This document shows, piece after piece, positions 2,274-58,880 of a stretch of DNA of 64,000 nucleotides. The stretch is taken from UHGV virus genome UHGV-1366603, one strand, 5' to 3'. The position numbers and the translations under genes are program-made. The DNA is from a virus. The notes below the pieces were generated by a model, which saw nothing but the letters and a program-made list of their open reading frames with translations, was not told the DNA's origin and searched no databases. How positions within the stretch are numbered: position 1 is the stretch's first letter; each line of letters begins with the position of its first letter.

Positions 2274-3335
2274 TTATTTTTCGAGTGCACTGTATAATGG
2301 CAGAATTAACTCGTGTCGGTAGTAGTTTCTTGCCGAACGTGTGAGTTTCTCCAGAATCTTTGCATCCTCGAAACGGGCAATCCTTACCATCAGATTAGAT
2401 TTGTATTTACCCATGCTCGCGTTGTCGTATTGCAGGCAGAACAATGCCCAATACCAGTTGACGATATTTCGATGCCAACTACCTTGAATTGTCGAACCGG
2501 GTTCTTTAAACAGAATTCGATCCAACGCCGTGGACGGTTTATGTGGGTCTTCAAAAATCTGAGGTATGTGAGCCATGACAACCGCAGGTAGAGGTTTACC
2601 AGCACGTAACGATTTTGAAATCGCTTTCGCGTGACGGATTGCTAAATCGCGTAGAGGTGGAGTCGGAATAACTCGTAACGGGTTTTCTTCTTCTATCTCT
2701 TTACCGAAGGCAATCGCACGATGAATATTTAAGAAAGCGATATCCATGTAACTGGGTAACATCCTGTAAATGATGTGTCGCTGCGCGTATACCAAGCGCG
2801 TGATGGGTTCTGGTTGTGTTCGGTAGTATTGTTCAGCAAGAACGTATTGCCACAGTAGTGCAACCAGATTTATCTCGATAATGCTGATCCCTCGGGGTTT
2901 GCCGTTACCGAGCGTCCAGTTAAGATTCGTGTATTCGTGATAAAGGTAAACCACCGGTGTGTAGTCACGGAAAGAAAGATTAGGATCGACAGGTCTCGCA
3001 ACTAACGAGATGATTTCATCCTGACCTTCTATAAAAGCGCCGTTAAAAACTTGACCATACTCCCCCACAGAAGTTAAGCGTAGAGCGTTGCCGATATCTG
3101 ACAGCTTTCGACGACAAGCCCATTCGATTTCTTCGTACGTGGGTTCACCGGCATAGCCGATAGCTGCTAAGATTTTTAGGACGAGATGACCAGAACCAAC
3201 GCTGGTTTGAATCGTTTCTAAATAGTTGCGAATGCGCTGGTTATTATTTTTTACGGCATTGACCAATTGTATAGCAGAAGGGTCTTCGTAGCGCCCCTTT
3301 ATGACTGCTTGGTTTAACTCGGCTTGACTGAACAT
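2274..3335 (-). CDS. hypothetical protein
   Basis: Track ORF 2274..3359; start moved to the second in-frame ATG (3333..3335), which has an AAGGAG Shine-Dalgarno 6 nt upstream. Lone minus-strand gene between + strand neighbours. Confidence 0.75.
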   Translation of the reverse strand: MFSQAELNQAVIKGRYEDPSAIQLVNAVKNNNQRIRNYLETIQTSVGSGHLVLKILAAIGYAGEPTYEEIEWACRRKLSDIGNALRLTSVGEYGQVFNGAFIEGQDEIISLVARPVDPNLSFRDYTPVVYLYHEYTNLNWTLGNGKPRGISIIEINLVALLWQYVLAEQYYRTQPEPITRLVYAQRHIIYRMLPSYMDIAFLNIHRAIAFGKEIEEENPLRVIPTPPLRDLAIRHAKAISKSLRAGKPLPAVVMAHIPQIFEDPHKPSTALDRILFKEPGSTIQGSWHRNIVNWYWALFCLQYDNASMGKYKSNLMVRIARFEDAKILEKLTRSARNYYRHELILPLYSALEK

Positions 3336-3387
3336 GACTGACTCCTTGGGGTTACACATAGGAAACGGTCACATTCTACTCACATTG

Positions 3388-3419
3388 AAAAATATCTGAG
3401 AAAGATATTATCTATGTGA
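3388..3419 (+). promoter_or_regulatory. promoter-like motif, copy 1 of a tandem 31-nt repeat upstream of 3542
   Basis: aaaatatctgagaaagatattatctatgtga; near-duplicate at 3469..3499; contains the recurring AGATATTATC core. Confidence 0.45.
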
Positions 3420-3468
3420 TGGTTCGGTGGTTAACTATTTTGAGTTATGTGTGTTCTAGACGCATTCT

Positions 3469-3499
3469 AAAATATCTCAGGTATATGTTATCTACGTGA
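3469..3499 (+). promoter_or_regulatory. promoter-like motif, copy 2, about 45 nt upstream of the 3542 start
   Basis: aaaatatctcaggtatatgttatctacgtga; same architecture as 3388..3419. Confidence 0.5.
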
Positions 3500-3541
3500 A
3501 CCAACACTACAATTGTATTAAACCTTTAAAGGATAAATAAA

Positions 3542-5380
3542 ATGGCTAAAGAGTTTAACGAAATTCCTAACAACGTAAATGCTGGCGCTGCTGGTGTAGA
3601 CCCGGCTCCGTCTTTTGGTGGTGTAGGTGCTGGTGCAGGCAGTGTGGATAACACCCACGCAGCAAATGCTTTCGGTGGTATGACTAAGAACATCTCCACT
3701 TTCGATAAAGCGTTCGGCTATATGTCCTACGTTTCTGCCGCTTCACATTTCACCGCGCTGATTGCGAAGATGGTTGAACGTAACCCGTACCTGAGCAAAT
3801 TCCGCTGCGGCGTTATCGACGGTGTGAATCCAGAAATGGGTTCTGCGGCATACGTTGCTGCGCCAGCAGATGAAAATGGCAGCCACTGGATGTATGGTAT
3901 CTTGTTCTTCGAACACGGTCAGTCTGTACGCTTCCGTGAAATCAACGGTAAAGAAACTTATTACACCCTGGCTTCTCTGTTTGGTCAGGCTGGTGTAATG
4001 GATTCTATCACCAAACAAATCTGCGAACAGCAGAACCTGCCGTCTGTGCAATTCATGGTAATGAACTGCATTCCAGATCTGGGTAAAACGCTGACTGAAG
4101 AGTGGGCTATCCAGCTGATGGGTCAGCTGACTCTGGGTATCTTTGGCCGTATTCCGGGCTACCTGGGTCAGCTGAAACTGACTCGCGGCGATCGCTTCGT
4201 TGCACAGGTAACTGCGGTAGACGAAGGTTCTCTGACTGACGTTAACGGCTCTGCACAACGTGCTGACCTGATGGTTCAGGTTGAACACACTCAGACCGGT
4301 AGCTTCGATACTAACCCGACGCTGATGTCCTCTGAACGTGTTCAGGGTTATCCGAGCGTTGCGGGTGTGGGTTACATCAACCTGCGTTATACTGGTCGCC
4401 GTGCACCTGAAAACGGTGTACAGGATTACAAACAGCTGCAAGCAGAAGTTGTTGTTTCTCTGATGGACTCTCAGTCTTCCGGGGCTATGGTACCAATCGA
4501 ACGTCAGCTGATTGAACTGGCTGCCTTCGCAGAAATCGCCGCTATCGGTGGCTGGCGTGAACGCTTCATGCACTCTCTCAACAAAACCGATCGTCGTTTC
4601 TCCCGCGTTATGGAATACGTAGAGTGGGGTGACAAACGTCCTGATCTGAGCAAAATCGATGGCAACCGCGAAGCTATCGAAGAGTGCCTGAACATGTTCG
4701 CCTACCCAGAAGCTGCGCTGGTTGTGAACCATCGTGCTGGTAACGGTATCGGTGGTCTCTCCACGATGTTCAGTGAAGTTTCCCAGGGTAACACTGGTAC
4801 ACTGTCTAACATCCTGACCATCCTGGACAACATGGCTCCGAAAGGTGCTACGGTGTTCACGCAGCGTTTCGCTGAAATGCTGAAAGTTAATACCATCACC
4901 TGCAACCACGTTGTTATCGCTGGCGTACCGACAGTTTCCGGTCAGTATTTCAGCAACAGCCAGAAACGTAGCTTCCAGGATCAGGACCTGGTGTCTGTAC
5001 TGAGCAAAGTTGGTGATAACCAACACGATGCCTACACTTACCTGTACGCGCAATCTTACTCACACCGTCAGTTCAACGCGACTGAACAGCGTTTGTACCT
5101 GCTGAAGCTGGCCGCTTCCCTGTTCGGCAGCAAACAGCCGGTCGTAACTGGCGAGTCCACCGATTTGGCAATCAACCCGAAATTCGCCAAAGCGCTGCTG
5201 GACTACGTGCGTGATAACTGCATCTTCCAAGTGAATGGTGTCACCGCAGTCAATAGCCTGGCTAATACGTTGTTCTTCAACAACGGCGGTGAAAACTTCA
5301 CTCTGTCTGGTAACGGCCCGAATTCCTTCGGCAGTGACTACAACATGTCATTCGCTTCCGGTAACTACAGCCCTATCTGA
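3542..5380 (+). CDS. abundant early protein; candidate chimallin (phage-nucleus shell protein) homolog, 612 aa
   Basis: Strong RBS (aaggataaataaaATG); codon usage heavily skewed to CTG/CGT/GGT/ACC; sits immediately upstream of the beta' N-terminal gene, as the shell gene does in phiKZ (gp54 then gp55, from memory); strong terminator downstream. Assignment is by synteny and size only. Confidence 0.55.
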   Translation: MAKEFNEIPNNVNAGAAGVDPAPSFGGVGAGAGSVDNTHAANAFGGMTKNISTFDKAFGYMSYVSAASHFTALIAKMVERNPYLSKFRCGVIDGVNPEMGSAAYVAAPADENGSHWMYGILFFEHGQSVRFREINGKETYYTLASLFGQAGVMDSITKQICEQQNLPSVQFMVMNCIPDLGKTLTEEWAIQLMGQLTLGIFGRIPGYLGQLKLTRGDRFVAQVTAVDEGSLTDVNGSAQRADLMVQVEHTQTGSFDTNPTLMSSERVQGYPSVAGVGYINLRYTGRRAPENGVQDYKQLQAEVVVSLMDSQSSGAMVPIERQLIELAAFAEIAAIGGWRERFMHSLNKTDRRFSRVMEYVEWGDKRPDLSKIDGNREAIEECLNMFAYPEAALVVNHRAGNGIGGLSTMFSEVSQGNTGTLSNILTILDNMAPKGATVFTQRFAEMLKVNTITCNHVVIAGVPTVSGQYFSNSQKRSFQDQDLVSVLSKVGDNQHDAYTYLYAQSYSHRQFNATEQRLYLLKLAASLFGSKQPVVTGESTDLAINPKFAKALLDYVRDNCIFQVNGVTAVNSLANTLFFNNGGENFTLSGNGPNSFGSDYNMSFASGNYSPI

Positions 5381-5412
5381 TAGATGTAGTAGTGCGTAAT
5401 TGGTAGTAATTA

Positions 5413-5454
5413 GGGACAGGGGAAAACCCCCTGTCCCTTCCCTCTCTTTTTTTG
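5413..5454 (+). terminator. intrinsic terminator
   Basis: gggacagggg-aaaa-cccctgtccc stem-loop followed by a T7 run. Confidence 0.85.
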
Positions 5455-5467
5455 TTGAGGATTTGGC

Positions 5468-6835
5468 GTGAAAGACAGATTACAATACTTCGGTGTATCA
5501 GGGCGATTAATCAGTCACGATAAAATGTTACGTGACGCTTTCAAAGAGGCGGAGGAAAAGGGCTATAAACCGCCGATGATTATCAATGATGTTGCGAAAT
5601 ATAAAGACACCATTGAGACGTCAGAGTTGATTAACCGAATCTTACAGAACCGGATAGTCGACGAGACGCTAAATTCGGCACCTATTTGTAGTATTGATTG
5701 TGAAGCACCTATCGTTCATCGATATAATCTCGGAATGCGATGTCCTACCTGCGGCTATGTGGTGACAGAACATCGTATTGTTTCAGAAGTCTGGATTCGT
5801 GCCCCGGAGGAAATAGGCAACTTTATTAACCCACGATTCTGGTCGATGTTTAACGCTTTCTTCGGTTCTAAACTTAAGAAGTTTAACCGAAACAAAGTGA
5901 CCGTAGAACGTGGTTCTGATTTATTGATGTGGATGTTAGATCCGTGTTATAAACCTGATAAAGACGAAGGTACTCGATCCCGAATAATCAAACGCATCTT
6001 TAGCGAGTATCAAGTTCCACGCGGTATTAGGAATTTTATTGACCACCATCGAACAATATTCAATATCTTAACTTCTCCTGAAGTCTGGAAAGAAATTTAT
6101 CCACCAACGAAAAATAACCGATATGAGAGCGAACGTACTCGCTTAGAGTGGAAAAAGTTCTTCGAAGAACAATCGCACACTTTCTTTCCGGTTCATCTTC
6201 CAATCATTTCACCCAAACTGATCGTTACGGAGGAACGACGTCAGGGTATCTTTATCGATCCTGTTTATACCAGTGCAATAGACGCGGTTAAGAACATCGC
6301 GTTACTTTATACCAATGCACGACGCATCCCAACCCATTTCATTATTAGTCGCGCATTAAAAGCAAATCGTCAGTTAGCGTACTTCTATATTGACCATCGT
6401 CAGGAGGTAATGGAAGGTAAACCTGGGTTCTATCGTGCCAAGTTAGGTTCAACACACATCCCGTGGGGTGGTCGTGTAACAATCTCTCCAATTTCAGAAC
6501 CGCACGACGCTATGAAGGTTATTGCACCTTGGCGTTGGTTAGTGACGTTAGAATCTGTAGCTATTGAAAACAAACTCGGTCGACGGAACTTCACACCACG
6601 GCAGTGTGAACGTGTTATTGCATTTGCATCAATGCAGTACGTACCGTTGGTTCATGAAATTATCAACGAACTTATTAAGGAGTCTCGTGGCGGTTACGGC
6701 CTGATGATATCAGCGCTACGAAACCCGACGCTTGTACAGTTGTCTATTCAGACATTATTTATCTCAGCTGTTAACCCTGATGTTACACAGTGCTCGTTAC
6801 GTATCTCCGATCGCGTCATCAAAGCTCCGAATGCT
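5468..6835 (+). CDS. multisubunit RNA polymerase beta' subunit, N-terminal fragment, exon 1
   Basis: GTG start with GAGGA RBS. Zn-finger-like CxxC...CPTC; GFYRAKLG..WGGRVTISP matches beta' [38 protein letters not shown] matches NRAPTLHRLGIQAF; exon ends ...RVIKAPNA (last nt T at 6835). The track ORF runs on to 6967 only because the intron is in frame until a stop. Confidence 0.85.
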
Positions 6836-7185
6836 AAAATTTGGCCCACTAGACGGGAAACCTCTAGTGCGTATCCCCCGAATTGCTGGGAACTCCTAAA
6901 GCTTACGATCCCGACAGGGTGGCGAAAGCCAGAAACAATTCGTAAGATAGCCTATGCTAACCAATAATGCTAAGGGTTGTGATAATGGATAACCAGCAGC
7001 GATGAAAATCGTTCAACGACTATCGAAAGGGTAAAACCGAGTAGAGTAGCTGCTTAGTTTAGCGGCGAAGTGGGGGAGACCTACGGGTAGCAATACCTAC
7101 GGTTATGATATAGTCTGTGCCCATGTGAAAACATGGGAGGGTGTCATTGCACACCTGCTCCAAAAGGAATGGAGTGGACAAACAG
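6836..7185 (+). ncRNA. group I self-splicing intron, 350 nt, no ORF, interrupting the beta' gene inside NADFDGD
   Basis: 5' exon ends in U (6835) and the intron ends in G (7185). P-like aattgctgg (6881..6889), Q-like ccagcagc (6993..7000), R-like gttcaacgactat (7011..7023) and S-like gatatagtctg (7107..7117) with GACUA/UAGUC P7 pairing. Flanking hairpins cactaga/tctagtg (6847..6869) and cccatg/catggg (7120..7137). Splicing restores NA|DFDGDQ. Confidence 0.75.
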
Positions 7186-7425
7186 GATTTCGATGGTGAC
7201 CAATTACAGGTTAGACGTTTAGTCGATACCACGGAGATGGATTTAGCGCTGGCTTATCGTCCAGATAACGGATTTATGTCCAGCACAAACGTAGACGAAG
7301 TGTCTAGCAGCATGGTGTTACACAATGAGCTTATCAGCATGGAAAACCGTTTCTTACGCGATACCGAAGAAGATCTGGAGGCGGGTATCGCCATCGACTC
7401 AGAATTAATCTTAATGGCGGGGTAG
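7186..7425 (+). CDS. multisubunit RNA polymerase beta' subunit, N-terminal fragment, exon 2 (begins DFDGDQLQV...)
   Basis: In frame with track ORF 7141..7425; DFDGDQ...RPDNGFMSS matches E. coli beta' DFDGDQMAVH...SPANGEPII. The GTG at 7141 is taken to be inside the intron, not a real start. Confidence 0.85.
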   Translation, partial: DFDGDQLQVRRLVDTTEMDLALAYRPDNGFMSSTNVDEVSSSMVLHNELISMENRFLRDTEEDLEAGIAIDSELILMAG

Positions 7426-17123: not shown

Positions 17124-19364
17124 ATGAAAACACCAGTTGAGCTATTGAGCAGCGTCGCTGACCGTGAAGTCAATATCGCACAGGTATCAGGTGCAAGGGC
17201 ATCGATGGTAGGTAACCATATGAAGTCCTCGGTGCCGATTGACCATCCTGAACCGTCACCACACTTTACGGGCGCAGATACCAATTACCACGATTTTCTG
17301 TTTAACGATATTGTGGAAGACAGTGGGAGCATCTGTCATTACACAACTAAGGAAGGTAGACAACGTCGTGCAACGTTTACCCGTTATGGTCGTCGTGGGG
17401 ATTCCCGTGCGCTGGAACATGCGATATTCTTCCGCCGTGCAGAATGCCGTATTCCGGGCAAAACAATGATAGACGTTATCGAGATTAACTTTTATACTAA
17501 TCACGATAACGTGTTCTCTTCCGAGAAATGGGAATCACCAAAACTGCGTAGTTTGTTACGTGGTGAAACCGACCAGTTAGAAAAGGATGAAATCCTGACG
17601 ACGATGCCGTGCATGGTGGATGGTGAATTCGCAGACAGTGTAGTGCTGCCAACAGTTACCATTTCACACCCAGACATTATCGAGGATTCCTACACGATTT
17701 CCGAAGAAGCGGCACAGAAGCTTCACGGGTATGGGTTGAAGGTTATCGAGAAAACATTGCGTGAAGATGAATTCTTACTGGATACCTACGGTTATAACGA
17801 TCCCGAGGGAAATCGTGTACCGCGCTATTTTCCAGACGTGGGTGAAGCAATTCGTGACGACGGCTTAGTTATTGCTTCTCGTCGTTTCGATGACCTGTAC
17901 GCAGCGATTGATGCAACCTTAGGGGAAACCCAACACGTTTCTCCGTTCTTCGATAACTGTGATTACGTGGATGCCGATCCGATACACTATAAAGCGCGTT
18001 TGGAAAACAACCACGAACTGATGGAACGTAGCGGAACTCGCATTGTTGATATTCAGGTTTGGCGTGATGAAACGTCATGCGGTAATGGAACGAATAACAT
18101 TAACTGTACTGAAGAGAACAAACGTGAGCTTGACAAATACGCATTGGCGTTAAAGGACTACTACAATGCGATTGTTCGCTTCTATTTCTCCGTGTCGAGA
18201 GATAAAAACATTATCTGGTCTCCCAAAGCGTGTGTGTTGTTGGAGAAAGCTTTTGCATCCGAAACGTACGAAGTCTACGCAGAGTTTCGTGAAGAAATTC
18301 GCGGAGTGATTGAAGACGCAATTCGTCGCGGCGAATACGGTAAAGAGAACGTAAGTCAACAGATTATCTCTAAACTGACTTCGCCTGTTCAGCGTGGATT
18401 AAGCGATCCCATCAATACGTATACAATTCGTATCGCGGTACGTTATCCGATCCCGGTGACGGTGTCTTCTAAGATTACCGACCGTTCGGGTACGAAAGGG
18501 ATTGTGGGTCGTGTACTGCCAGTTGAACAGATGCCAATTAACGAGTTCGGCGAACGTGTCCACGTACTACGTTCAATGAACGCCGTAATTCGTCGTTCTA
18601 CTTACGCCGCGCTGTTCCACATGTATTGGTCAGCAGCATCTGAACAGCTGAAGATGCGCCTTAAACCAATGCTGGATGAAGGACGTATTGGTGAGTGTTG
18701 GGAAATCCTGATGGACTACCTCTCACGCTATAATCCAGAATGGGCGAACACGTTACAGGCTACGCATCCTACGGAGGATTTGCAGCGAGAACTCTTTAAA
18801 GAGATTTACGATTTCACTATCCGCATTTACTTACCTCACGAACTTGATGACACTCCGGTGGAAATCAGTGAACGTTTAGGTGAGTTTAAACCCCGTAAGT
18901 CTAAACTGCTTATTACCAATTACGACGGTAAACAGGAATGGACAAAAGACGAGTTTTACGTGGGTGGTGTAGAAACATTACGGCTTGATAAAACGGGACG
19001 TGAATTCTCAAGTATTTCGTCGATGTACCTGAACTACCTGGGCACGATTGATGCGTCTAACCAAGGACGTGGTTCGTATCCGGTAAACTATAAAACGCTA
19101 AAATGGGCTGGTCCTTCGGAAGAACGACTATTAGCGGGTTATGGTCCAGGTAACTACGAAGAGGTTCACGATAGGGCAAATAACCCTGCTGTACATCGTG
19201 AGATTTTAGTAGGGCTGTACCGATCTCAAACCCCTTCCAATCCGGGCGTACTGGTAGACCGGAATAAGCTCCCATTAGGAGATTCGCAGATTGACAGAAT
19301 GATGAAAAACATTCATAGCTGCGAAGGGTTTGAATTGGTGAAAATGAAAAGGGGCGAAGAATAA
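17124..19364 (+). CDS. multisubunit RNA polymerase beta subunit, C-terminal portion
   Basis: TDRSGTKGIVGRVLPVEQMPINEFGERVHVLRSMNAVIRRSTY aligns with E. coli beta [49 protein letters not shown]; aaaggag RBS. Confidence 0.7.
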   Translation: MKTPVELLSSVADREVNIAQVSGARASMVGNHMKSSVPIDHPEPSPHFTGADTNYHDFLFNDIVEDSGSICHYTTKEGRQRRATFTRYGRRGDSRALEHAIFFRRAECRIPGKTMIDVIEINFYTNHDNVFSSEKWESPKLRSLLRGETDQLEKDEILTTMPCMVDGEFADSVVLPTVTISHPDIIEDSYTISEEAAQKLHGYGLKVIEKTLREDEFLLDTYGYNDPEGNRVPRYFPDVGEAIRDDGLVIASRRFDDLYAAIDATLGETQHVSPFFDNCDYVDADPIHYKARLENNHELMERSGTRIVDIQVWRDETSCGNGTNNINCTEENKRELDKYALALKDYYNAIVRFYFSVSRDKNIIWSPKACVLLEKAFASETYEVYAEFREEIRGVIEDAIRRGEYGKENVSQQIISKLTSPVQRGLSDPINTYTIRIAVRYPIPVTVSSKITDRSGTKGIVGRVLPVEQMPINEFGERVHVLRSMNAVIRRSTYAALFHMYWSAASEQLKMRLKPMLDEGRIGECWEILMDYLSRYNPEWANTLQATHPTEDLQRELFKEIYDFTIRIYLPHELDDTPVEISERLGEFKPRKSKLLITNYDGKQEWTKDEFYVGGVETLRLDKTGREFSSISSMYLNYLGTIDASNQGRGSYPVNYKTLKWAGPSEERLLAGYGPGNYEEVHDRANNPAVHREILVGLYRSQTPSNPGVLVDRNKLPLGDSQIDRMMKNIHSCEGFELVKMKRGEE

Positions 19365-21463
19365 TGAAGGCGACTCCGGTTCACGTAAGAGACTTGTGCA
19401 AGTTGAATTCGGATCAGGTGTGGCTACTTCGGGGCGTTTACGACGTGTCCTTCGACGATGGGGTCACGTTGAGAATGTCCGGTCGACACATTAAGTTGAG
19501 CTGGCCGTATTGGGGATTAACCCAGTTTTATCCCCAGGTGCCAATCTCGTCGAACATGGCGTATAAGCATGGCGACACGGCAACTGACGATGCGCATCTG
19601 CGCTTTATGTCGTTGGCGGCTGTAGCAGCACGTAAGGCCGGAGTGGATCTGGCCGATACCCGTTACCTGTTATCGCAGCACGTTTATGCAAACGCGTTTA
19701 ACCTGACGGTGAAAAACCTGTTGTCGTATTGTGTTACCATTGACTACGATACGATGATGGAGATTTATCAGCATGAAAACTTCAAGCTAATTATTGAGTG
19801 GTCTAAACACTATCCGACGGGTTACGATGAAGAGGGTAACGATAAGGTAGAAGAAGCCTATCAACTCATTGAGAAAATCTTTAAAGATCCGAGACTCTCA
19901 AACAACCCAGTTGTCATGTCTGTGTTAGACCGCACACTGAAAATGGATCAGATTCTCCAGGCTTACATTCGTGGTAAGACTTCAGAGATTGACTCCCGTG
20001 TGTATTCTAACCAGGTATGGGAAGGTTTCTTCACCGGCCTGCATTCTGTTATCAGTCGACTGAAAGAAGCAGGTGCGACATCGCGTTCTCACCTGTATAA
20101 CACCGACAAGATTGCAGACGCAGAGTACGCATCGCGTAAGTTGCAGTTAGCGGCTAACGTGCTGATGTTCTTCGATTACGAAGACTGTGGTACACATCAC
20201 GTACACAGACACACCTTTACGAATTCGCCGTTGGAAGAAGCGAAATTCAAAGCGATGAAGGGAATGCGTTATCGCTTCGAAGGTACTGGTGGTCCGTGGT
20301 TACGATTCGAAGATGGTGAGTTTGAGAAAGTCTTGAACAAACCTATCGAGTTCCGTACCGCGATGTGTTGCAAAGGGATGTCACGACAGACTATCTGTGC
20401 AACGTGTATGGGTGACTTGATTTATAACCTGTCACCTGGCACGTCACCGGGTCACCTTGCGTCAACCGCAATTTCGGAAAAGGGTACTCAAGGTATTCTG
20501 TCGACGAAACACCTTGACTTCCTGCGTTATCTGCTGAACTTGGTTTTGTCACCAAGAATGCGTGATTATCTCACGGAGTATAAACACAACTCCGTTAAAG
20601 GGATTAGTTTACTGGAGAAGCCGCAATACGGTACTTGGGATGAATACCAACTGGTAATTTCGGATGAAGTCTATTCAGAGATTAGCCAGATTGCGTACCA
20701 TGAAGACCTGGACGATATTGATGAAACGGCACTCCCGGAAATTAATGACCTTACGTTTGTTCGTTTAGATGCAGAAGGGAATATCCTGGCAGAAGATCCG
20801 ATCGACGTTCGAATGGGCGTCTGCGGTAACTTCTCTAAGTCATTCCTTCGCTTCTTCTTGAAGAATCGTGATAAACTCGTATTTCCCAGCAAGAAAACGG
20901 TGCGTGTTCCGCTAAAAGGATGGAAACCGTCCTGGCCGATCCTAATTTATACGAATCGGTCTGAATCTATGGCGGAGTTTGTAGCAGGGTTGGAATTGAT
21001 TTTACGTTCGGTAGCATCGGACAAGTCAGATAACTTCGAACAGTTCTCGGACGAGTCAATGCGTTTGAGCAAGAAGAGTGGTAAGGTTAAACCGATTACC
21101 CTCGTTCAGATGCGTGGTGCCACGGAGAAACAATGTACTCATGCGTTGTTCTACGTGTTCAAATATATCCAACGTAAACTCAAAGGGATTCCGATGACGC
21201 ACATCGCGATTATGTTGGCAATCTCTCGTGTTGAGTCACCTACTAACCCATTCCCGGCAGTAGGGTTTGACAGTGAGGATGCTGATGCCGCAGAAGGAAA
21301 ACGCTTCGAAGATCACAATACGCTGATTGCGATGCGTTCTGCGATTCCGATGTTGCTGTTTGAGGGACAACAGAAGAACTTGGACAACGTGCGTTTCTAT
21401 ACGTCACGTAAACGTCCTGCTTCGTTGTACGACAATTCTGTCGCGGCAACGATTATTGAGTAA
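19364..21463 (+). CDS. probable RNA polymerase beta' subunit, C-terminal portion (bridge-helix-like segment)
   Basis: TAATG overlap with the beta gene; GHLASTAISEKGTQGILSTKHLD resembles the beta' bridge helix [21 protein letters not shown]. Similarity is modest. Confidence 0.5.
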   Translation: MKATPVHVRDLCKLNSDQVWLLRGVYDVSFDDGVTLRMSGRHIKLSWPYWGLTQFYPQVPISSNMAYKHGDTATDDAHLRFMSLAAVAARKAGVDLADTRYLLSQHVYANAFNLTVKNLLSYCVTIDYDTMMEIYQHENFKLIIEWSKHYPTGYDEEGNDKVEEAYQLIEKIFKDPRLSNNPVVMSVLDRTLKMDQILQAYIRGKTSEIDSRVYSNQVWEGFFTGLHSVISRLKEAGATSRSHLYNTDKIADAEYASRKLQLAANVLMFFDYEDCGTHHVHRHTFTNSPLEEAKFKAMKGMRYRFEGTGGPWLRFEDGEFEKVLNKPIEFRTAMCCKGMSRQTICATCMGDLIYNLSPGTSPGHLASTAISEKGTQGILSTKHLDFLRYLLNLVLSPRMRDYLTEYKHNSVKGISLLEKPQYGTWDEYQLVISDEVYSEISQIAYHEDLDDIDETALPEINDLTFVRLDAEGNILAEDPIDVRMGVCGNFSKSFLRFFLKNRDKLVFPSKKTVRVPLKGWKPSWPILIYTNRSESMAEFVAGLELILRSVASDKSDNFEQFSDESMRLSKKSGKVKPITLVQMRGATEKQCTHALFYVFKYIQRKLKGIPMTHIAIMLAISRVESPTNPFPAVGFDSEDADAAEGKRFEDHNTLIAMRSAIPMLLFEGQQKNLDNVRFYTSRKRPASLYDNSVAATIIE

Positions 21464-31072: not shown

Positions 31073-31143
31073 GTTTTCACTCTCAAATCTAGCGGCTGCT
31101 ATACTGATTTGTGGGTAATGTAATTTCTCAAAAGGAAACACAA

Positions 31144-32478
31144 ATGGGATACTGGCAAAATCACATTGCATCAGTTGCGGATGCAAAGGTTGTAGCCGCA
31201 GAATCAATTAAATTCCAAGATAAAAAGAAACTCGCAGAACTGGCAGACATTATTGCTAAATTTCGTGCAGCCGGAGACTTCAGTCCGGCCGGTTACGAGA
31301 GTTCTGGTGTTTCTGATTGGGTATTTAAAACCAACGGCATTAGCATTAACTTTAAGAACGGTAGCGAACTCGGATTATTCGACGTTGCCTTCGCAGGTGT
31401 AGAACCACCTAAGCTGGACGCGAACAGTCCGGTAATTGCGTCAATGGCGCGTGCACTGTACGCAGGTAATAAAGACCTGGACATGTACAGTAAGTTTATT
31501 AAAGAAAACGAACTGAACAGCAGCATTGACGATTCCAGTGCGAAAATCAGCGGCGACTTGAGCAAAGTCAGTTCCCCGCTTTATCTGACCCCGGTGCTGT
31601 TAGAGAAACTGGAGCTCACCGATTTGGAGGTTGCTGCGGTAATCCTTCACGAAGTCGGGCACGTTTATTATTACTTCCGTACGCTGATGCGTACCGTGGT
31701 AACGGATTTATTGGCAGACGCTGCGGCTAACCGCATCATGGAAAGCGAAGACCCAGCTGTTCGTTTACGTGTGGTTAAAGACGTTGAACGAATGCTGAAC
31801 ACGAAAGTGAATCAGCCTGAGACCATCTGCACTGAGTACAAGAAAGAAAACGTCTACATGCACCTGGTAACAGATTTGCTGTTAGACCGTCCGTTCATTA
31901 CCGGTAGTCAAGGCTTTGCAAACCGTACCTGGGAACGTGCTGCTGACGACTTCGCTGCCCGCTTCGGTGCGGCCCCGTACTTAGCTTCCGCGCTGTACAA
32001 AATGGAAACCAGCCCGTTCTATCTGCTGCGTAACTCGTCGTATATGAACATGGGTGTCCACCTGACGATTGAGTTGTTCCGTGTGACTGCGCTGATTGCC
32101 CAAGCTGCCATTCCGATTCTTCCGGTTATCTCTGTTACGTTCGGCATGATTCTGAACGACCCAGATAACACCATCTACGATCCGCCGCAGGAACGTTTTG
32201 AAGCGATGCGCCGTACGCTGGTAGAAGAACTGAATACCATCAAAGACAAAAACACGAAAGCGGCTAACGAGCAACGTAAACGTATTCTGGATGGTATCGC
32301 GGTAATTGACCGTATTCTCCTTACGGTTAAAGACAAAGATAACCTGTATCAGTTTATCTGGAAGACGCTGACACCGAAAGGGCGTCGTGACCGTGCTGCG
32401 GTGGATTATCAGCGCGCTATCGGGAAGTATATGTCGAATGACCTCCGTATCGCTTCTGCCATGTTTAACGTCGATTAA
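31144..32478 (+). CDS. putative zinc metallopeptidase-like protein (HExxH motif)
   Basis: AAVILHEVGHVYYY; track ORF starts at GTG 31111, ATG 31144 with aaaagga RBS preferred; divergent from the exonuclease gene. Confidence 0.55.
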   Translation: MGYWQNHIASVADAKVVAAESIKFQDKKKLAELADIIAKFRAAGDFSPAGYESSGVSDWVFKTNGISINFKNGSELGLFDVAFAGVEPPKLDANSPVIASMARALYAGNKDLDMYSKFIKENELNSSIDDSSAKISGDLSKVSSPLYLTPVLLEKLELTDLEVAAVILHEVGHVYYYFRTLMRTVVTDLLADAAANRIMESEDPAVRLRVVKDVERMLNTKVNQPETICTEYKKENVYMHLVTDLLLDRPFITGSQGFANRTWERAADDFAARFGAAPYLASALYKMETSPFYLLRNSSYMNMGVHLTIELFRVTALIAQAAIPILPVISVTFGMILNDPDNTIYDPPQERFEAMRRTLVEELNTIKDKNTKAANEQRKRILDGIAVIDRILLTVKDKDNLYQFIWKTLTPKGRRDRAAVDYQRAIGKYMSNDLRIASAMFNVD

Positions 32479-32492
32479 GTAAAGGTAAAACC

Positions 32493-41632: not shown

Positions 41633-42904
41633 ATGGCAAATTTCGCAAAAACTCGCGCCGCTCGTGAATCAATGGAAGCGGCCGATGAAGTAATCGACGG
41701 TATCAGCAACGTTGAACCGGCAGAAGAGAACCTGGACGTCCAGCTTGCGGACGTTGCATCTATCGACGGTCAGCTCGAACAGCTGGAAACCGACGGTGAA
41801 ACCCTGGCTGCCGATACCGAGCGTACTGAAGACGCTATCGAACAGGCGGAAGAAGCCGTTGCTAACGGTGAAGAAATGCCGGAAGAAGCGGTTGCCCTGC
41901 ATGAAGTGGCACAGGAATCCATCGCACGTCGTTGGAACCTGGAGCGTACTAAACTGGCTCGCGAATCCTATCGCCGTGGCCGTGGCATGACTGCTGCTGC
42001 GCAGGAAGGCTGGAAAGAAACCCTGAAAGGTCTTTACGAGCGTTTCATTCAGTTCTGTAAAGAAGTAATTGCGAAGATCAAAGACCTGAAACTGAAATAT
42101 TTCAACGTCGGTAAGACCGCACAGAAACGTGCGAAGAAATATCAGGAAATGATCCGCAAGCTGGGCAAACAAGATAAAGACAACATTTCTGGCGGCTTTA
42201 TCACCAAACTGTCCATCGAAGGTAAATTCGATGCTGCTGGCTCTATTGCCATTGCTAAAGAAGTGACCGCAGGTAAAGCTAAAGGTGCTATCAGTGCACT
42301 GGAAAAACAAGCTGGTGAAGCTGTGACTGCTGTTACCAAAGGTGACGATGACGCATTCAAAGCGATGCGTGGTGATCAGCCGGTTGAACTGTTTGGTAAA
42401 GCAGCGTCTAAACTGCATTCTCTGCCGAACTTTGAAAACGGCGATGCGTCTAAACTGCTGGCTCTGCCGGGCAACGCTTACGTTCAGGCTGGTACTAAAG
42501 AACTGGCTGGCGGCCACAAGTTCACCGCAATTGCGTTCATGAGCACCGGTGACGCTTCTGACGATAAAGAAGTGGCTACTCCGTCTGTTTCCGAAATGGC
42601 TGGCGCGGCATCTGCTCTGGAAGCGATCGGTAAAGGCTTCGAAGCTGTACTGAAAGATTTCCGTGCTTACGATTCTGAAATCGTGAAACTGCAACAGGCT
42701 GCTGAAAAAGCGTCCAACGCGCTGAACAACGAAAAAGACGAAAGTAAGTGGGAAGGACTGCGTAATGCACGTCAGGCCGCTGATCAGTCTGTGAAGAACT
42801 ACCAGACCCTGAACCGTGCCGTTAGCTATGTTGCTAACACCGTTATTAGCGGTCTGAACGGTTACCTGGGTGCTGGTATCGGCGCGTACAAAAAGTCTAA
42901 ATAA
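41633..42904 (+). CDS. paralog A of a tandem pair; abundant protein with acidic N-terminal region (possible processed head or internal virion protein)
   Basis: Starts MANFAKTRAARESMEA, ends GLNGYLGAGIGAYKKSK; host-optimal codon usage. Confidence 0.8.
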   Translation: MANFAKTRAARESMEAADEVIDGISNVEPAEENLDVQLADVASIDGQLEQLETDGETLAADTERTEDAIEQAEEAVANGEEMPEEAVALHEVAQESIARRWNLERTKLARESYRRGRGMTAAAQEGWKETLKGLYERFIQFCKEVIAKIKDLKLKYFNVGKTAQKRAKKYQEMIRKLGKQDKDNISGGFITKLSIEGKFDAAGSIAIAKEVTAGKAKGAISALEKQAGEAVTAVTKGDDDAFKAMRGDQPVELFGKAASKLHSLPNFENGDASKLLALPGNAYVQAGTKELAGGHKFTAIAFMSTGDASDDKEVATPSVSEMAGAASALEAIGKGFEAVLKDFRAYDSEIVKLQQAAEKASNALNNEKDESKWEGLRNARQAADQSVKNYQTLNRAVSYVANTVISGLNGYLGAGIGAYKKSK

Positions 42905-42980
42905 TTAGACTTACGCTCGTACAGTTCTTGAAATAAATCAATAGGGGAACGACGTGTTCCCCTTAGAGGAAAAGCTTAAA

Positions 42981-44243
42981 ATGGCAAATTTCGCAAAAAC
43001 TCGCGCCGCTCGTGAATCGATGGAAGCTACTGCTACTGTAGTTCCAGACGGCATCGAACTGCCAGCAGAATCTGTTGAAGGTACTCTGGCCGATATCGAA
43101 CATGATACCAAACCGATCGAAGCCCTGGACGCTGACGCTGAACTGCTGGCCGAAGACGGCGACGAAACTGATGCTCAACTGGATGTCCTGGATGAAGCTC
43201 AGGCCGCTGCCGACGGTGAAGGTGCTGGTGAAGACGGCGAAGAGCCGATGGACGCTGAAGAAGATATGCCGGACGACGCAGCGACTGCGCTGGACGTTGC
43301 TCAGGAATCTATCCGTTCTCGTTGGAACTTCGAACACCGTTCTTCCGTTGCACACGAATCCTACGGTTCTCGTAACCGTCGCCAGGTTGCTCGTGAATCC
43401 CTGTGGGAAGACATTAAAGCATTCCTGAAACGTATCTGGGAATGGCTGAAAGAACAAGGCCGTAAGATCAAAGATCGTTGGCTGAAATTCTCCAACCAGG
43501 GTAAATCCATCCAGGCTCGTTCTAAGAAATACGACGATGCTATTCGTAAACTGGGCAAACAGAAGAAAGATGAAATCTCTGGTGGCTTCATCAAGTCTCT
43601 GTCTATCGACGGTAAATTCGTTGGCGACGATCTGTCGCGCCTGAAGAATATCCTGAACCACGTCTCCACCTACTACAGTGGTAACGTTCAGAGCTTCCTG
43701 AACAACGGTACGGATATGGTTGGTAACGTCGTTAAAGGCGATGGTGCTAAAGTTGAGAAACTGAAAGCAGACTTCGCTGCTCTGGCTAAAGAAGACGTTA
43801 GCAAGTTCAAACTTGGTAACATGGCTCTGAAGATGGAGTACGACGAAGAAGGCGGATTTAGCTCCAGCTATGTGGAAGCTGAAAACCGTGCTGAAACCAA
43901 CGTGAAAACTCCGTCTGTTAGCGAACTGGCTAAGACCAATGCCTTCTTCAACGAAGTGGGTAAACAGATCGAGAAGAACGTTCTGGAATATCGTAAGACT
44001 GAACAGGCTCGCGAGAAATTCAGCCAGCAGATTGAGAAGCTGCTGAAAGAAATCGACAGCGTGAAGATCGACGAAAAACCGCAACTGACCGAATCTGTAC
44101 GTACCGCACGTCGTTACATCAACAGCATTAACCAGGCAGTGTCTCTGGGCGAGAAAGTTATTTCCTCTACTCAGAAACATCTGGCTGGCGGTCTGAACGG
44201 CTATATCTCCGCAGGTATCGCTGCTTACGAAAAATCTAAATAA
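42981..44243 (+). CDS. paralog B of the tandem pair
   Basis: Same N-terminus MANFAKTRAARESMEA and same end GLNGYISAGIAAYEKSK; track start GTG 42954, ATG 42981 with GAGGA RBS preferred. Confidence 0.8.
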   Translation: MANFAKTRAARESMEATATVVPDGIELPAESVEGTLADIEHDTKPIEALDADAELLAEDGDETDAQLDVLDEAQAAADGEGAGEDGEEPMDAEEDMPDDAATALDVAQESIRSRWNFEHRSSVAHESYGSRNRRQVARESLWEDIKAFLKRIWEWLKEQGRKIKDRWLKFSNQGKSIQARSKKYDDAIRKLGKQKKDEISGGFIKSLSIDGKFVGDDLSRLKNILNHVSTYYSGNVQSFLNNGTDMVGNVVKGDGAKVEKLKADFAALAKEDVSKFKLGNMALKMEYDEEGGFSSSYVEAENRAETNVKTPSVSELAKTNAFFNEVGKQIEKNVLEYRKTEQAREKFSQQIEKLLKEIDSVKIDEKPQLTESVRTARRYINSINQAVSLGEKVISSTQKHLAGGLNGYISAGIAAYEKSK

Positions 44244-44307: not shown

Positions 44308-44322
44308 CGCATTAAAAATAAT

Positions 44323-44339
44323 CTCAGATAGATATTACC
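44323..44339 (+). promoter_or_regulatory. promoter-like motif CTCAGATAGATATTACC
   Basis: Recurring motif about 60 nt upstream of the 44399 start. Confidence 0.5.
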
Positions 44340-44398
44340 TTAGTGAGATTACGCTGTAATCATTTAACGACCTGTTTATTACGTTTAGGAGAATTATC

Positions 44399-52457: not shown

Positions 52458-52576
52458 ACTCGTAAACGCGTCTTAGACGTTGTTTTACACCTTAAGACGA
52501 TTAATGGTGTTTAAAAAATAAAAGGTCGTCAGAATGCGATACAGCGCGTTTTAGAGGGTGTTTTAATTAAAATATT

Positions 52577-52592
52577 TTCAGATATATATTAC
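52577..52592 (+). promoter_or_regulatory. promoter-like motif TTCAGATATATATTAC
   Basis: Contains TATATTAC, which I recall as the phiKZ early-promoter core; about 58 nt upstream of the small gene at 52650. Confidence 0.5.
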
Positions 52593-52649
52593 TTAGGTGA
52601 GAGAATTACGTAATACTCATTTATCGAATACCTAATTAGGAGCTATATC

Positions 52650-52793
52650 ATGATTTCTGTAAAACACAAAAAAGCTATCTTCGCTGTTGTTATCGCTGTT
52701 GTTCTGGGTTGCCTGTACCTGGATATCGACAAAGGCTACGACACTTGCATCGACAACGGTAACTCCGTTGCGCAGTGCACTGGTCGTGGTTAA
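52650..52793 (+). CDS. small hydrophobic protein, 47 aa (not in ORF track, below its length cutoff)
   Basis: TAGGAG RBS; MISVKHKKAIFAVVIAVVLGCLYLDIDKGYDTCIDNGNSVAQCTGRG; host-optimal codons; own promoter-like motif and terminator. Confidence 0.6.
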   Translation: MISVKHKKAIFAVVIAVVLGCLYLDIDKGYDTCIDNGNSVAQCTGRG

Positions 52794-52800
52794 TGTATAA

Positions 52801-52828
52801 GGCACCTTCGGGTGCCCTTAATTTTTTA
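52801..52828 (+). terminator. intrinsic terminator
   Basis: ggcacc-ttcg-ggtgcc hairpin followed by a T6 run. Confidence 0.85.
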
Positions 52829-52847
52829 TCTATTGGAGTATTTTTAA

Positions 52848-53663
52848 ATGAAAACTATCAAAGACTATTTTCCGACCGGCATCAGTAGCGACCATTTCGT
52901 ACCAGCGGATTCGATGGAAATCATCAGTAAGTCCAGTAGCGGTGAGTTTGTTATTTACCTAACTAATGTAGGAGGTAGACCGAGTTTCATTCTCCTCGAG
53001 CCTAAAGAAGTAAGTGTCTGTACGGTTGCTGTAAATGTTTCTTGCAGCCTTAGCTGGTTGAAGTCCAGATTGCTACGCTTGCTCGTGGTTAATACTGACC
53101 CAGTAGTACGCTTAGAGCGATTAAAAGCAATGAATGAAGTTATCCTGGGTTTTCTGCTACATCCTATTTACGGTAACCCTAAAGTCGCAGAAGCAATACA
53201 AAACGTACAGTTGGTGGAGTGGAGTGATATTGACTACGAGCGTGCCTCCGAATTTGTATTACAGGCAGACGACAACACCGGTGTGTTCTCACGAACGTTA
53301 GATAATGTAACGGTAACTGCACGTGTGTTGTTTGGTTTACAGCGCGTAGAGTTTGAATTGAAACACGTCTACGTGAGCAATAAACCGGAGATGGTGGAAA
53401 CGTTGATTCGTGCGTTCGCATACCCGTTAGATGGTGAATGGGAACAGCAGATTAATGATGCGTTAGGAGCCATGCATTTCCTGGCTGAAACGTTAAGGAA
53501 GGATGAGAAATTGAAAGGTCGTGTTTATCCAGAACACGATTTTGTTTGTGAAGAATGTGGAGCACAGTATCAAATCCGTGTTCCTTTAACCGGCCTAACA
53601 TTCCCGCAAGCCAACGTGCAATGTAAGGAATGTGGCCATGTTCAATACGTAGCGATTAAATAA
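52848..53663 (+). CDS. hypothetical protein with C-terminal zinc-ribbon-like CxxC...CxxC
   Basis: ttggag RBS; CEECGAQYQ...CKECGHVQY near the C-terminus. Confidence 0.8.
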   Translation: MKTIKDYFPTGISSDHFVPADSMEIISKSSSGEFVIYLTNVGGRPSFILLEPKEVSVCTVAVNVSCSLSWLKSRLLRLLVVNTDPVVRLERLKAMNEVILGFLLHPIYGNPKVAEAIQNVQLVEWSDIDYERASEFVLQADDNTGVFSRTLDNVTVTARVLFGLQRVEFELKHVYVSNKPEMVETLIRAFAYPLDGEWEQQINDALGAMHFLAETLRKDEKLKGRVYPEHDFVCEECGAQYQIRVPLTGLTFPQANVQCKECGHVQYVAIK

Positions 53664-58775: not shown

Positions 58776-58816
58776 GTCTAAGCCCTTCGGGGCTTAGACC
58801 TTTTATTTTTTTTTTC
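58776..58816 (+). terminator. intrinsic terminator
   Basis: 10-bp stem gtctaagccc/gggcttagac with UUCG loop, followed by a T-rich run. Confidence 0.9.
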
Positions 58817-58830
58817 TTTCTATTATTTTT

Positions 58831-58845
58831 TGGATAGATATTATC
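58831..58845 (+). promoter_or_regulatory. promoter-like motif TGGATAGATATTATC
   Basis: Recurring motif about 36 nt upstream of the uORF at 58881. Confidence 0.5.
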
Positions 58846-58880
58846 AAAGGGAGACTGTCAGTTGGTTTAAAGGAGACTTT

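Follow-up and report, generated by a model that had tools for sequence, protein, structure and literature searches.

A probable chimallin gene preceded by twin early-promoter-like elements in an SPN3US/Erskinevirus-like jumbo phage

The analysed stretch of viral DNA, hereafter the window, comprises 64,000 nucleotides and carries near one end an open reading frame (ORF) of 612 aa, which we interpret as the chimallin gene of an SPN3US/Erskinevirus-like jumbo phage with two copies of an early promoter ahead of it; the probability of this reading as a whole is estimated at about 85%. Assignment of the ORF to chimallin is supported by its predicted fold, profile-profile comparison, a Pfam link, orthology with an SPN3US protein and gene order shared with phiKZ. 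The two elements are instances of a promoter type found throughout the genome rather than a chimallin-specific sequence. Coordinates of all features are given in Table 1.

Table 1. Location of the genes and sequence elements discussed in the text (window positions).
Feature	Position	Strand	Remarks
phiKZ gp52 (head protein) homologue, divergent	2274..3335	-	PHROG 3938; BLASTP E 6e-9
Conserved TATG	3357..3360	-	within TTCCTATGTG, 22 nt upstream of gp52-like start
Distal early-promoter-like element	3374..3419	+	repeat copy 1; 34.9 bits, independent matrix
Proximal early-promoter-like element	3454..3499	+	repeat copy 2; 35.0 bits, independent matrix
Shine-Dalgarno AAGGA	3529..3533	+	8 nt 5' of ATG, read from sequence
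Gene assigned to chimallin (ChmA, phage nuclear shell protein)	3542..5380	+	612 aa, ATG start, ORF call
Terminator-like hairpin and T-run	5412..5453	+	between chimallin and beta' gene
nvRNAP beta' N-terminal subunit (phiKZ gp55 homologue), exon 1	5468..6835	+	PHROG 2987; ends ...VIKAPNA
Predicted group I intron	6836..7185	+	350 nt, no ORF; between NA and DFDGD codons
beta' gene, exon 2	7186..7425	+	starts DFDGDQ...; BLASTP to SPN3US C-terminus E 1e-30
Early-promoter-like motif	11870..11911	+	25.1 bits leave-one-out; ahead of phiKZ gp68 homologue
Early-promoter-like motif	17064..17105	+	10.0 bits leave-one-out, weakest of seven
Early-promoter-like motif	44309..44350	+	39.9 bits leave-one-out; best consensus match; after terminator
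Early-promoter-like motif	52563..52604	+	20.6 bits leave-one-out; exact TATATTAC inside
Early-promoter-like motif	58815..58856	+	21.5 bits leave-one-out; after terminator of 56475..58760

The extent, strand and ATG start of the ORF agree with the first-pass annotation, and two expression features claimed there are borne out. The Shine-Dalgarno sequence corresponds to the strong ribosome-binding site that had been proposed, and TAAGGA is kept ahead of the gene in relatives. Codon usage is host-optimal, with a fraction of optimal (E. coli-type) codons of 0.80 that ranks third among the 56 genes of the window (median 0.545, sd 0.094), Leu being encoded by CTG in 87% and Arg by CGY in 100% of cases. 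The product matches PHROG 8316 (E 2e-242), and each of the 62 phage records that match it still carries the label "hypothetical protein". Metagenome or run assemblies are the sole source of the window phage. Megablast of the region found only 66 nt in common with three Erwinia phages (five records), located where the divergent gp52-like gene has its 5' end, and thus no close isolate.

The AF2 model of the 612-aa protein (pLDDT 75, pTM 0.78) displays an ordered core predicted at residues ~64-570, flanked by low-confidence tails (residues 1-63 and 571-612) in which pLDDT is mostly below 50 over segments 1-63, 571-599 and 610-612. Such tails would be expected, as the N- and C-terminal segments of chimallins link protomers. 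In the family alignment the N-terminal tail holds a conserved FD+AFG consensus motif, while F578, N580 and G592 of the C-terminal tail are invariant. The modelled core contains the two domains described for chimallin, an N-terminal α/β domain and a C-terminal GCN5-related acetyltransferase-like domain (PMC9365700). The first-pass annotation had put forward chimallin as a candidate to be checked by structure-based search, and a Foldseek comparison with the PDB upholds it: the best nine matches are all chimallin/PhuN chains (E values from 1.3e-21 to 3.6e-18; TM 0.58-0.71 over 540-595 columns), the tenth has an E value of 0.018 and nothing else is significant. In BFVD, 17 more jumbo-phage proteins of 590-690 aa were matched (E 3.8e-24 to 2.2e-15). 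Profile comparison leads to the same family, with hhalign aligning the family of the window protein with 24 phiKZ-type chimallins at 90% probability (E 1.6e-6, 491 columns) in a match that runs on into the C-terminal segment. The solved chimallins, namely phiKZ gp54, 201phi2-1 gp105, PhiPA3 gp53 (PhuN) and that of Goslar (PDB codes 7SQQ-7SQV, 8FNE, 8IGG; PF25677), share with the modelled window protein the two-domain fold (TM 0.6-0.7) and, judging by its low-confidence ends, probably also the disordered N- and C-terminal tails.

At the level of sequence the relationship is distant. Neither phmmer with the ORF product nor hmmsearch with a 26-member family profile retrieved a chimallin among PDB chains, Pfam PF25677.1 matched neither the 612-aa ORF nor four close homologues, and pairwise BLASTP against phiKZ gp54 was not significant. 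Since direct sequence searches fail, the protein is placed in the family by its fold, by profile-profile comparison and by transitive links. In a search of 1.8 billion proteins the family profile reached P0104 (E 1.6e-6), which in turn scores 35.4 bits against Pfam PF25677 Chimallin_Phikzvirus (cut-off 27). Precomputed PF25677.3 hits exist for 12 homologues, though not for the 612-aa protein. Could the ORF encode some other abundant protein with no more than a GNAT-like domain in common with chimallin? The failure of direct searches to match solved chimallins and the identity of just 13-16% in structural alignment would be compatible with this, but it is extremely unlikely, as the structural match covers both chimallin domains over ~560 columns, acetyltransferases are absent from the significant Foldseek PDB matches, by synteny the gene stands exactly where phiKZ has gp54 and the transitive link leads to the Pfam chimallin family.

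The chimallin assignment is further supported by SPN3US ACQ60_gp244, which shares 55% identity with the window protein across 92% of the latter, is of similar size (617 aa versus 612 aa) and was named a diverged chimallin by Laughlin et al. 2022 (PMC9365700); a 13.5-nm square lattice seen in SPN3US lysates has been ascribed to it. SPN3US is a separate phage, and at the nucleotide level similarity to the window is confined to the 66-nt stretch matched in the three Erwinia phages. The designation gp244 applies to the SPN3US chimallin in RefSeq locus-tag numbering only (YP_009153316.1), the gp244 of Thomas et al. 2016 being a small virion RNAP subunit. A confident function can be given to a gene still labelled hypothetical in 62 phage records.

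Genes around the ORF display the order DNA polymerase, gp52-like (minus strand), chimallin, gp55-like, SbcD and gp68-like, as in phiKZ, where gp50-gp52-gp54-gp55 is the matching series. The claim that the shell-protein gene is followed by a gp55 counterpart, as in phiKZ, therefore holds, the next gene matching phiKZ gp55 by BLASTP with an E value of 2e-39. The conserved block comprises a divergent family B DNA polymerase, gp52-, gp55- and gp68-like genes and RNAP beta subunits, as befits a chimallin gene in a jumbo phage that has two multisubunit RNA polymerases. Phages with phiKZ-type chimallin genes share with the window the slot beside nvRNAP beta' and an early-promoter element upstream, although phiKZ has a small extra gene, gp53, between gp52 and gp54 that the window lacks. 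SPN3US resembles the window more fully, its chimallin gene being flanked upstream by a minus-strand gp52-like gene and downstream by nvRNAP beta', with a promoter-like pair within a divergent intergenic region of ~206 nt.

The gp52-like gene most likely starts at the ATG at 3335-3333, which has AAGGAG upstream and gives a product of 353 aa, rather than at 3359; the gene call in the identical contig L004 likewise has 353 aa, and relatives are annotated at the equivalent start. The TATG further upstream could represent a candidate late (nvRNAP) promoter or a transcription start for this divergent gene, by analogy with the phiKZ late promoter consensus, T-3 A T G+1. The surrounding block CACATAGGAA is invariant in eight relatives, and Derbicusvirus members retain TATG (AGTATGAC).

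The region between the divergent genes holds one family of direct repeats, 46 nt long and spaced 80 nt apart. The copies match at 35 of 46 positions (76%), whereas 300 dinucleotide-preserving shuffles of the intergenic region gave a mean of 23.0 (sd 1.3) and a maximum of 27, and the repeat is thus well beyond chance. The two repeats reported in the first-pass annotation are therefore real, but they are 76-78% rather than near-identical (25 of 32 nt, 78%, over the span delimited there), and the second copy as delimited there begins at 3468, not 3469. The distal core, GATATTATC, lies at 3404-3412, 138 nt 5' of the ATG, and the proximal core, TATGTTATC, at 3484-3492, 58 nt from the ATG. Given the -10/-20/-30 layout of phiKZ-type early promoters, the distal start is predicted near 3416-3419 (GTGA), which would give a 5'UTR of ~124 nt; the proximal start is predicted near 3496-3499, with a 5'UTR of ~44 nt. 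Complementary 10-mers occur at 3416-3425 and 3498-3507. RNAalifold with 11 genomes predicts no pairs in the long 5'UTR that would arise from the distal start, and a conserved RNA fold was discarded.

Both copies belong to a motif of ~42 nt that occurs seven times in the window and comprises an A-rich segment, TCAGATA, GATATTAYC and GTGA. All seven are intergenic, on the plus strand and upstream of plus-strand genes, nvRNAP genes included. The gene that follows the motif at 11870 is homologous to phiKZ gp68, the fifth nvRNAP subunit (E 7e-10), and the motif at 17064 precedes the nvRNAP beta subunit genes at 17124..21463 (PHROG RNA polymerase beta subunit). Leave-one-out scores range from 10 to 40 bits, the top score in 20 shuffled windows being 13.0, so that the site at 17086, at 10.0 bits, is not above background by score alone. 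Most sites stand singly at the head of an operon, immediately behind a terminator; the ORF at 56475..58760 (761 aa) that precedes one of them would be the major capsid gene, judging by its position, which is that of the SPN3US major head protein. Searching the repeat halves as simple patterns showed no enrichment, and the family became clear from the core GATATTATC, with 35 matches at up to three mismatches against 14.4 expected, together with reading of the intergenic regions. Two coding-looking intergenic stretches, 31208-31980 and 32275-32492, proved to be one plus-strand gene, 31111..32478.

The window motif follows the same pattern as the early-promoter consensus published for N1M2, OBP, 201phi2-1 and phiKZ (..TTTCARRYAKATATTATYWAAGTGWA; TATATTAC). 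The early promoters of phiKZ (TATATTAC) and of N1M2 and OBP (TTTCARRYAKATATTATYWAAGTG) have the same three-block layout and nearly the same bases. In phiKZ, as in 201phi2-1, early promoters have an AT-rich element near -10 and more blocks near -20 and -30, a layout that both chimallin copies fit through their A-rich, TCAGATA and GATATTAYC blocks. A matrix built from five non-chimallin sites only (the independent matrix of Table 1) detects the early promoter of phiKZ gp54 at 24.6 bits, and it places a tandem pair at conserved distances in 11 of 11 genomes spanning at least five genera (Seoulvirus, Erskinevirus, Machinavirus, Wellingtonvirus and Derbicusvirus), with the distal copy 138-151 nt and the proximal copy 55-65 nt from the ATG. 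In SPN3US 22 strong sites were found, all on one strand, compared with one in the shuffled genome; they sit ahead of nvRNAP genes and many small early-type genes, and none of the 22 is directly upstream of virion structural blocks or vRNAP genes. This number is comparable with the early promoters of phiKZ (28-32) and N1M2 (31), and placement at operon heads is alike in the window clade and phiKZ-like phages. Putative phiKZ-type early promoters thus recur at the heads of co-oriented operons and are absent from late structural blocks. Taken together, the seven-member motif, the published consensus, detection of the phiKZ gp54 promoter and the pair in 11 genomes sustain the description of the repeats as promoter-like. 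They support reading them as promoters, and both copies would be active as such.

Two other explanations of the repeats were weighed against the early-promoter reading. Operators or iterons bound by a regulator of the phage or the host would account for the nearly palindromic core GATATTATC (GATAATATC on the other strand), which resembles many operators, and for the inverted repeat AATATCT/AGATATT in copy 1. That inverted repeat is missing from copy 2, however, all motif sites are co-oriented with their downstream genes, most follow terminators singly at operon heads and phiKZ has the same motif as an experimentally mapped promoter, making regulator sites very unlikely. Host sigma-70 promoters read by bacterial RNA polymerase are highly improbable: copy 1 does contain TTGAAA and TATTAT separated by 15 nt, and the core resembles a -10 box, but a sigma-70 scan of the plus strand from 3360 to 3541 found nothing, neither copy 2 nor the relatives retain the -35-like hexamer, sigma-70 promoters offer no equivalent of the conserved blocks at -20 and at the start site, and phiKZ-type phages transcribe without need of host RNA polymerase.

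Under the early-promoter reading, the two copies need not be equivalent. One might serve the injected virion RNAP early, and the other a different form of the enzyme or another period (middle or continuous expression), or be a weak or relic copy; this is possible, if rather unlikely. In phiKZ two starts have been mapped for gp54, the primary with an early and the secondary with a middle motif, and in relatives of the window phage the proximal copy is the weaker (16-31 bits versus 24-41 bits for the distal), which together suggest that the copies may differ in role. Their sequences also differ in relatives, the distal reading GTCAAAAAnAT..CAGATTGATATTATC and the proximal CATTCCATAAAT..CAGGCAGATATTATC, while the A-rich-TACTCAGAT half is common to the phiKZ distal element and the window motif. 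Finally, a TATG, which is the phiKZ late-promoter signature, occurs at the predicted distal start in the window, SPN3US, L005, SNUABM29 and Wellington. On the other hand, Asesino, Huxley, ChrisDB and the Derbicusvirus members do not keep this TATG, and the early-type matrix scores both copies equally high in the window phage (35/35 bits, distal/proximal) and high in a 71%-identical relative (36/40 bits). Unlike the phiKZ gp54 starts, both window copies score as early-type.

Downstream of the ORF, a hairpin with an 11-bp stem (5412-5422/5428-5438) and the loop AAAAC precedes a pyrimidine tract and the T7 run (5447-5453). The 70-nt stretch folds at -26.4 kcal/mol (z -3.4), and like elements end many other genes of the window. 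Because T7 starts 8 nt past the stem, a simple terminator scan does not report this hairpin, and termination efficiency is uncertain for the same reason. The strong terminator of the first-pass annotation is consequently retained as a stable hairpin, with its strength in doubt.

These features are consistent with the following scheme. The window phage would belong to the nucleus-forming (phiKZ-like) group and probably infects an enterobacterial host, and its chimallin, by analogy, would self-assemble into a square lattice enclosing replicating phage DNA. A virion-packaged multisubunit RNA polymerase injected with the DNA, as in phiKZ-type phages, would read the element through an A-rich block near -30, TCAGATA near -20 and GATATTAYC near -10, starting near GTGA. 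Transcription from two neighbouring starts, combined with a good ribosome-binding site and strongly host-optimal codons, could then ensure that chimallin is made in very large amounts from the earliest minutes of infection. The hairpin with its delayed T-run probably halts most transcripts after chimallin, and the read-through fraction would feed the nvRNAP beta' gene, which itself lacks a copy of the promoter motif. The early timing, the positions of the starts and attenuation by the terminator are deduced, and the part of the timing argument based on nvRNAP genes is weakened by 201phi2-1, in which early promoters are missing from some of them.

A chimallin gene with an early promoter is an expected feature of this phage group, and the current understanding of phage nuclei is unchanged by these results. 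They do indicate that SPN3US-like enterobacterial jumbo phages have in common with phiKZ both the fold of chimallin and the grammar of the early promoters. Tandem copies before chimallin, present in the window phage and all SPN3US-like relatives checked, distinguish this clade from phiKZ-like early promoters, and SPN3US has just one other locus with two motif copies within 200 nt. Across the clade the two copies keep a spacing of 77-93 nt and set distances from the ATG, though chimallin has diverged to 38% identity. It is tempting to propose, at somewhat less than even odds, that the tandem early promoter is a conserved and nearly chimallin-specific device of the SPN3US-like clade that sets the dosage and timing of the shell protein, with the copies read differently, for example one by the injected polymerase and the other also at later times. 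If so, the leaky terminator and the intron-bearing beta' gene would tie nvRNAP supply to chimallin transcription. The twin arrangement offers a testable element for how phages gain enough early shell protein and could serve as a strong expression cassette specific for a phage polymerase.

The beta' gene is split by a predicted group I intron within the NADFDGD catalytic motif. Rfam RF00028 matches positions 6825-7137 with 61 bits (gathering score 50), and the exon junction was set from the intron-less relative L005. The resulting boundaries, gcU/aaaa...acaG/gat, place a U at the end of the 5' exon and a G at the end of the intron, and the predicted spliced product of 535 aa has no stop and an intact NADFDGD motif. 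As far as residue 456 the beta' protein and its SPN3US orthologue are 67% identical. In contrast with the window phage, beta' has no intron in SPN3US, Asesino or the 71%-identical relative. The phiKZ gp55/gp56 intron, which also matches RF00028, interrupts its gene at the same codon boundary, after NA/NG and before DFDGD, but carries an HNH endonuclease gene (gp56), unlike the ORF-less 350-nt intron of the window.

The ORF, put forward in the first-pass annotation as a candidate for chimallin (the phage nuclear shell protein, ChmA/PhuN), is predicted to encode a chimallin, with four independent lines (fold, profiles, orthology with SPN3US and synteny with phiKZ) concurring. No chimallin was retrieved from the PDB by phmmer with the ORF or by a search with a 26-sequence family profile, the local Pfam copy gave zero matches for the ORF, and BLASTP against phiKZ gp54 was not significant. 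An AlphaFold model computed from the family alignment presents a pLDDT of 75 and a pTM of 0.78. Comparison of this model with the PDB, a check suggested at the outset, revealed that the best nine chains are all chimallin/PhuN, from Goslar, 201phi2-1 and PhiPA3 (E of 1.3e-21 to 3.6e-18 and TM of 0.58-0.71 over 540-595 columns), while the tenth match has an E of 0.018. In a viral structure library it hits 17 proteins encoded by other jumbo phages (RP12, RSF1, Noxifer, Eowyn, pTD1 and D3 among them), each 590-690 aa long. Profile comparison by hhalign, ORF family against 24 phiKZ-type chimallins, gave 90% probability (E 1.6e-6, 491 columns), and an exhaustive family-profile search of 1.8 billion representatives reached P0104 at E 1.6e-6. 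P0104 passes Pfam Chimallin_Phikzvirus (35.4 bits, cut-off 27) and P0103 falls below threshold; the name of this family, PF25677, was fixed by scanning phiKZ gp54, and a newer version of its model is recorded on 12 homologues of the ORF. The tails of the ORF (residues 1-63 and 571-612) were modelled with low confidence and contain conserved residues, consistent with the linking role of the N- and C-terminal segments between chimallin protomers (PMC9365700).

The ORF is 55% identical to SPN3US ACQ60_gp244 over 92% of its length. Laughlin et al. 2022 (PMC9365700) described "a diverged chimallin homologue (gp244) in SPN3US" sharing 10% identity with the chimallin of 201phi2-1; this protein is taken to be the 617-aa ACQ60_gp244 on the basis of RefSeq locus-tag numbering. 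The name "gp244" is ambiguous, denoting the 617-aa homologue only in the RefSeq locus tags followed by Laughlin et al. 2022; the numbering of Thomas et al. 2016 gives the name to a small beta' fragment of the virion RNA polymerase. The window gene adds a member to the established group of diverged, SPN3US-type chimallins; its phage has been recovered solely in assemblies. The gene order comprises a divergent family B DNA polymerase, a gp52-like gene (minus strand), the ORF, a gp55-like beta' gene, SbcD-like and gp68-like genes and RNA polymerase beta genes, the same order as around phiKZ chimallin.

[quoted passage not shown] Host-optimal codon usage, a strong ribosome-binding site and a strong terminator had likewise been proposed; the codon bias was borne out, and a good ribosome-binding site and a strong terminator-like hairpin are present. 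With 0.80 of its codons being E. coli-type optimal ones, the ORF ranks third among the 56 window genes (median 0.545). The terminator folds at -26.4 kcal/mol over a 70-nt stretch (z -3.4); it was overlooked by a simple scan because the T-run starts 8 nt after the stem. Three more genes display a similarly extreme bias (0.80-0.85): two of ~425 aa (41633..44243), corresponding in position to SPN3US genes annotated "internal head protein", and one of 761 aa (56475..58760), by position the putative major capsid gene. This pattern agrees with such bias being a mark of the most abundant proteins.

Features of the chimallin locus and sites of the promoter-like motif
Feature	Position	Strand	Remarks
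Divergent gp52-like gene start	3335..3333	-	353 aa; AAGGAG upstream
TATG within TTCCTATGTG	3357..3360	-	22 nt upstream of start 3335
Distal and proximal repeats	3374-3419, 3454-3499	+	One 46-nt direct-repeat family; 76% identical; 80 nt apart
Motif cores (seven)	3404, 3484, 11892, 17086, 44331, 52585, 58837	+	Anchored on core
AAGGA ribosome-binding site	8 nt before chimallin ATG	+	Sequence reading
Chimallin ORF	3542..5380	+	612 aa
Terminator hairpin	5412-5438	+	11-bp GC-rich stem; T-run starts 8 nt past stem
Group I intron	6836..7185	+	350 nt, no ORF; boundaries from intron-less relative (..VIKAPNA/DFDGDQ..)

The two upstream elements exist as first reported, although "near-identical" overstates their resemblance: 25/32 nt match over the span originally given, and they are merely similar. 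The top 46-mer match between them has 35 identities, against at most 27 when the intergenic region was dinucleotide-shuffled 300 times. When all window intergenic regions were read, the element was found five further times; the seven sites share the consensus cATTnAAAAWATnTCAGATA-GATATTAYC-TWAGTGAGA, and all are intergenic, on the plus strand and 5' of plus-strand genes, including the gp68-like and nvRNAP beta genes. Leave-one-out scores range from 10 to 40 bits, compared with maxima of up to 13, mostly <8, in 20 shuffled windows, so that score alone does not separate the weakest site (17086, 10 bits) from background. Just 12 nt separate the core at 11892 from the GTG listed as the start of the gp68-like gene (11904), so that translation of this gene probably begins at a codon further downstream. 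The strong site at 52585 (region 52563..52847) is followed by ~260 nt without a confident gene, containing one doubtful 57-aa minus-strand ORF from the gene caller, before the next plus-strand gene at 52848; several very small genes stand behind the equivalent SPN3US promoter, and by analogy this stretch may contain a non-coding RNA or small ORFs that escaped annotation.

The same motif is already in the literature as a predicted early promoter in related jumbo phages, with consensus TBYAWWWWWTTTCARRYAKATATTATYWAAGTGWA in N1M2, similar sequences in OBP and 201phi2-1, and TATATTAC in phiKZ. Early promoters of these phages are described as having an AT-rich element centred around -10 and conserved blocks at -20 and -30, and as being read by the virion RNA polymerase. 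A matrix derived independently, from the five non-chimallin window sites only, scores 35 bits on each chimallin copy and 24.6 bits on the phiKZ gp54 early promoter. It detects two sites before chimallin in 11/11 genomes tested (the window, its 71%-identical metagenomic relative, SPN3US, pEa_SNUABM_29, Asesino, Huxley, ChrisDB, Wellington, CR5, Phobos and EarlPhillipIV), with core-to-ATG distances of 138-151 nt (distal) and 55-65 nt (proximal), although protein identity has fallen to 38%. A refined matrix gave 22 strong sites across SPN3US, all on one strand (one in the shuffled genome); they precede nvRNAP genes and many small genes, and none in this genome-wide scan lies directly before virion structural blocks or virion polymerase genes. 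Close site pairs occur at just two SPN3US loci, chimallin (93 nt apart) and a second one (198 nt apart). The latter pair (72491 and 72689 of NC_027402) lies in the 332 nt that separate the major head protein gene from gp190 and a polymerase gene; the equivalent place in the window has a single site (58837). Judged by sequence, both repeats belong to a known early-promoter type, putative in this phage, and the original observation and its interpretation were both essentially right. Clade-wide conservation of the tandem pair is a small new observation and does not amount to a novel type of system.

By analogy with phiKZ, the injected virion polymerase would start at both elements, near 3416-3419 and 3496-3499, so that the 5'UTR would measure about 124 nt from the distal and 44 nt from the proximal start; no conserved RNA structure was predicted in the longer one. 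Together with the good ribosome-binding site and optimal codons, this would yield high early chimallin output. The beta' gene has no motif of its own in the window, as in 201phi2-1, and is probably expressed through hairpin read-through. The phiKZ chimallin gene belongs to several transcription units, and two starts have been mapped for it, the primary bearing an early motif and the secondary a middle motif; two starts before chimallin were therefore already known. Both window copies, in contrast, look early-type.

On the opposite strand, the divergent gene most likely begins at 3335 rather than 3359. The conserved block CACATAGGAA, or TTCCTATGTG on the minus strand, is present in the window and its relatives and contains TATG, the phiKZ late-promoter signature. 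Its position would suit a late head-protein gene, and a candidate late promoter is proposed.

A group I intron (Rfam RF00028 match at 6825..7137; 61 bits, gathering score 50) is predicted to split the beta' gene (5468..7425). It falls precisely at the boundary of the NA and DFDGD codons in the catalytic motif, with U ending the 5' exon and G ending the intron. The listed ORF 5468..6967 corresponds to exon 1 with read-through and ORF 7141..7425 to exon 2; predicted splicing restores a 535-aa protein with the NADFDGD motif intact. The beta' genes of SPN3US, Asesino and the 71%-identical closest relative lack the intron, whereas phiKZ gp55 has a group I intron at the same codon boundary, carrying the HNH endonuclease gp56. 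The phiKZ intron was predicted in 2002, though long-read RNA sequencing did not reveal its splicing; a cryo-EM study of the phiKZ enzyme places DFDGD at gp55 residues 417-421, which implies the spliced form.
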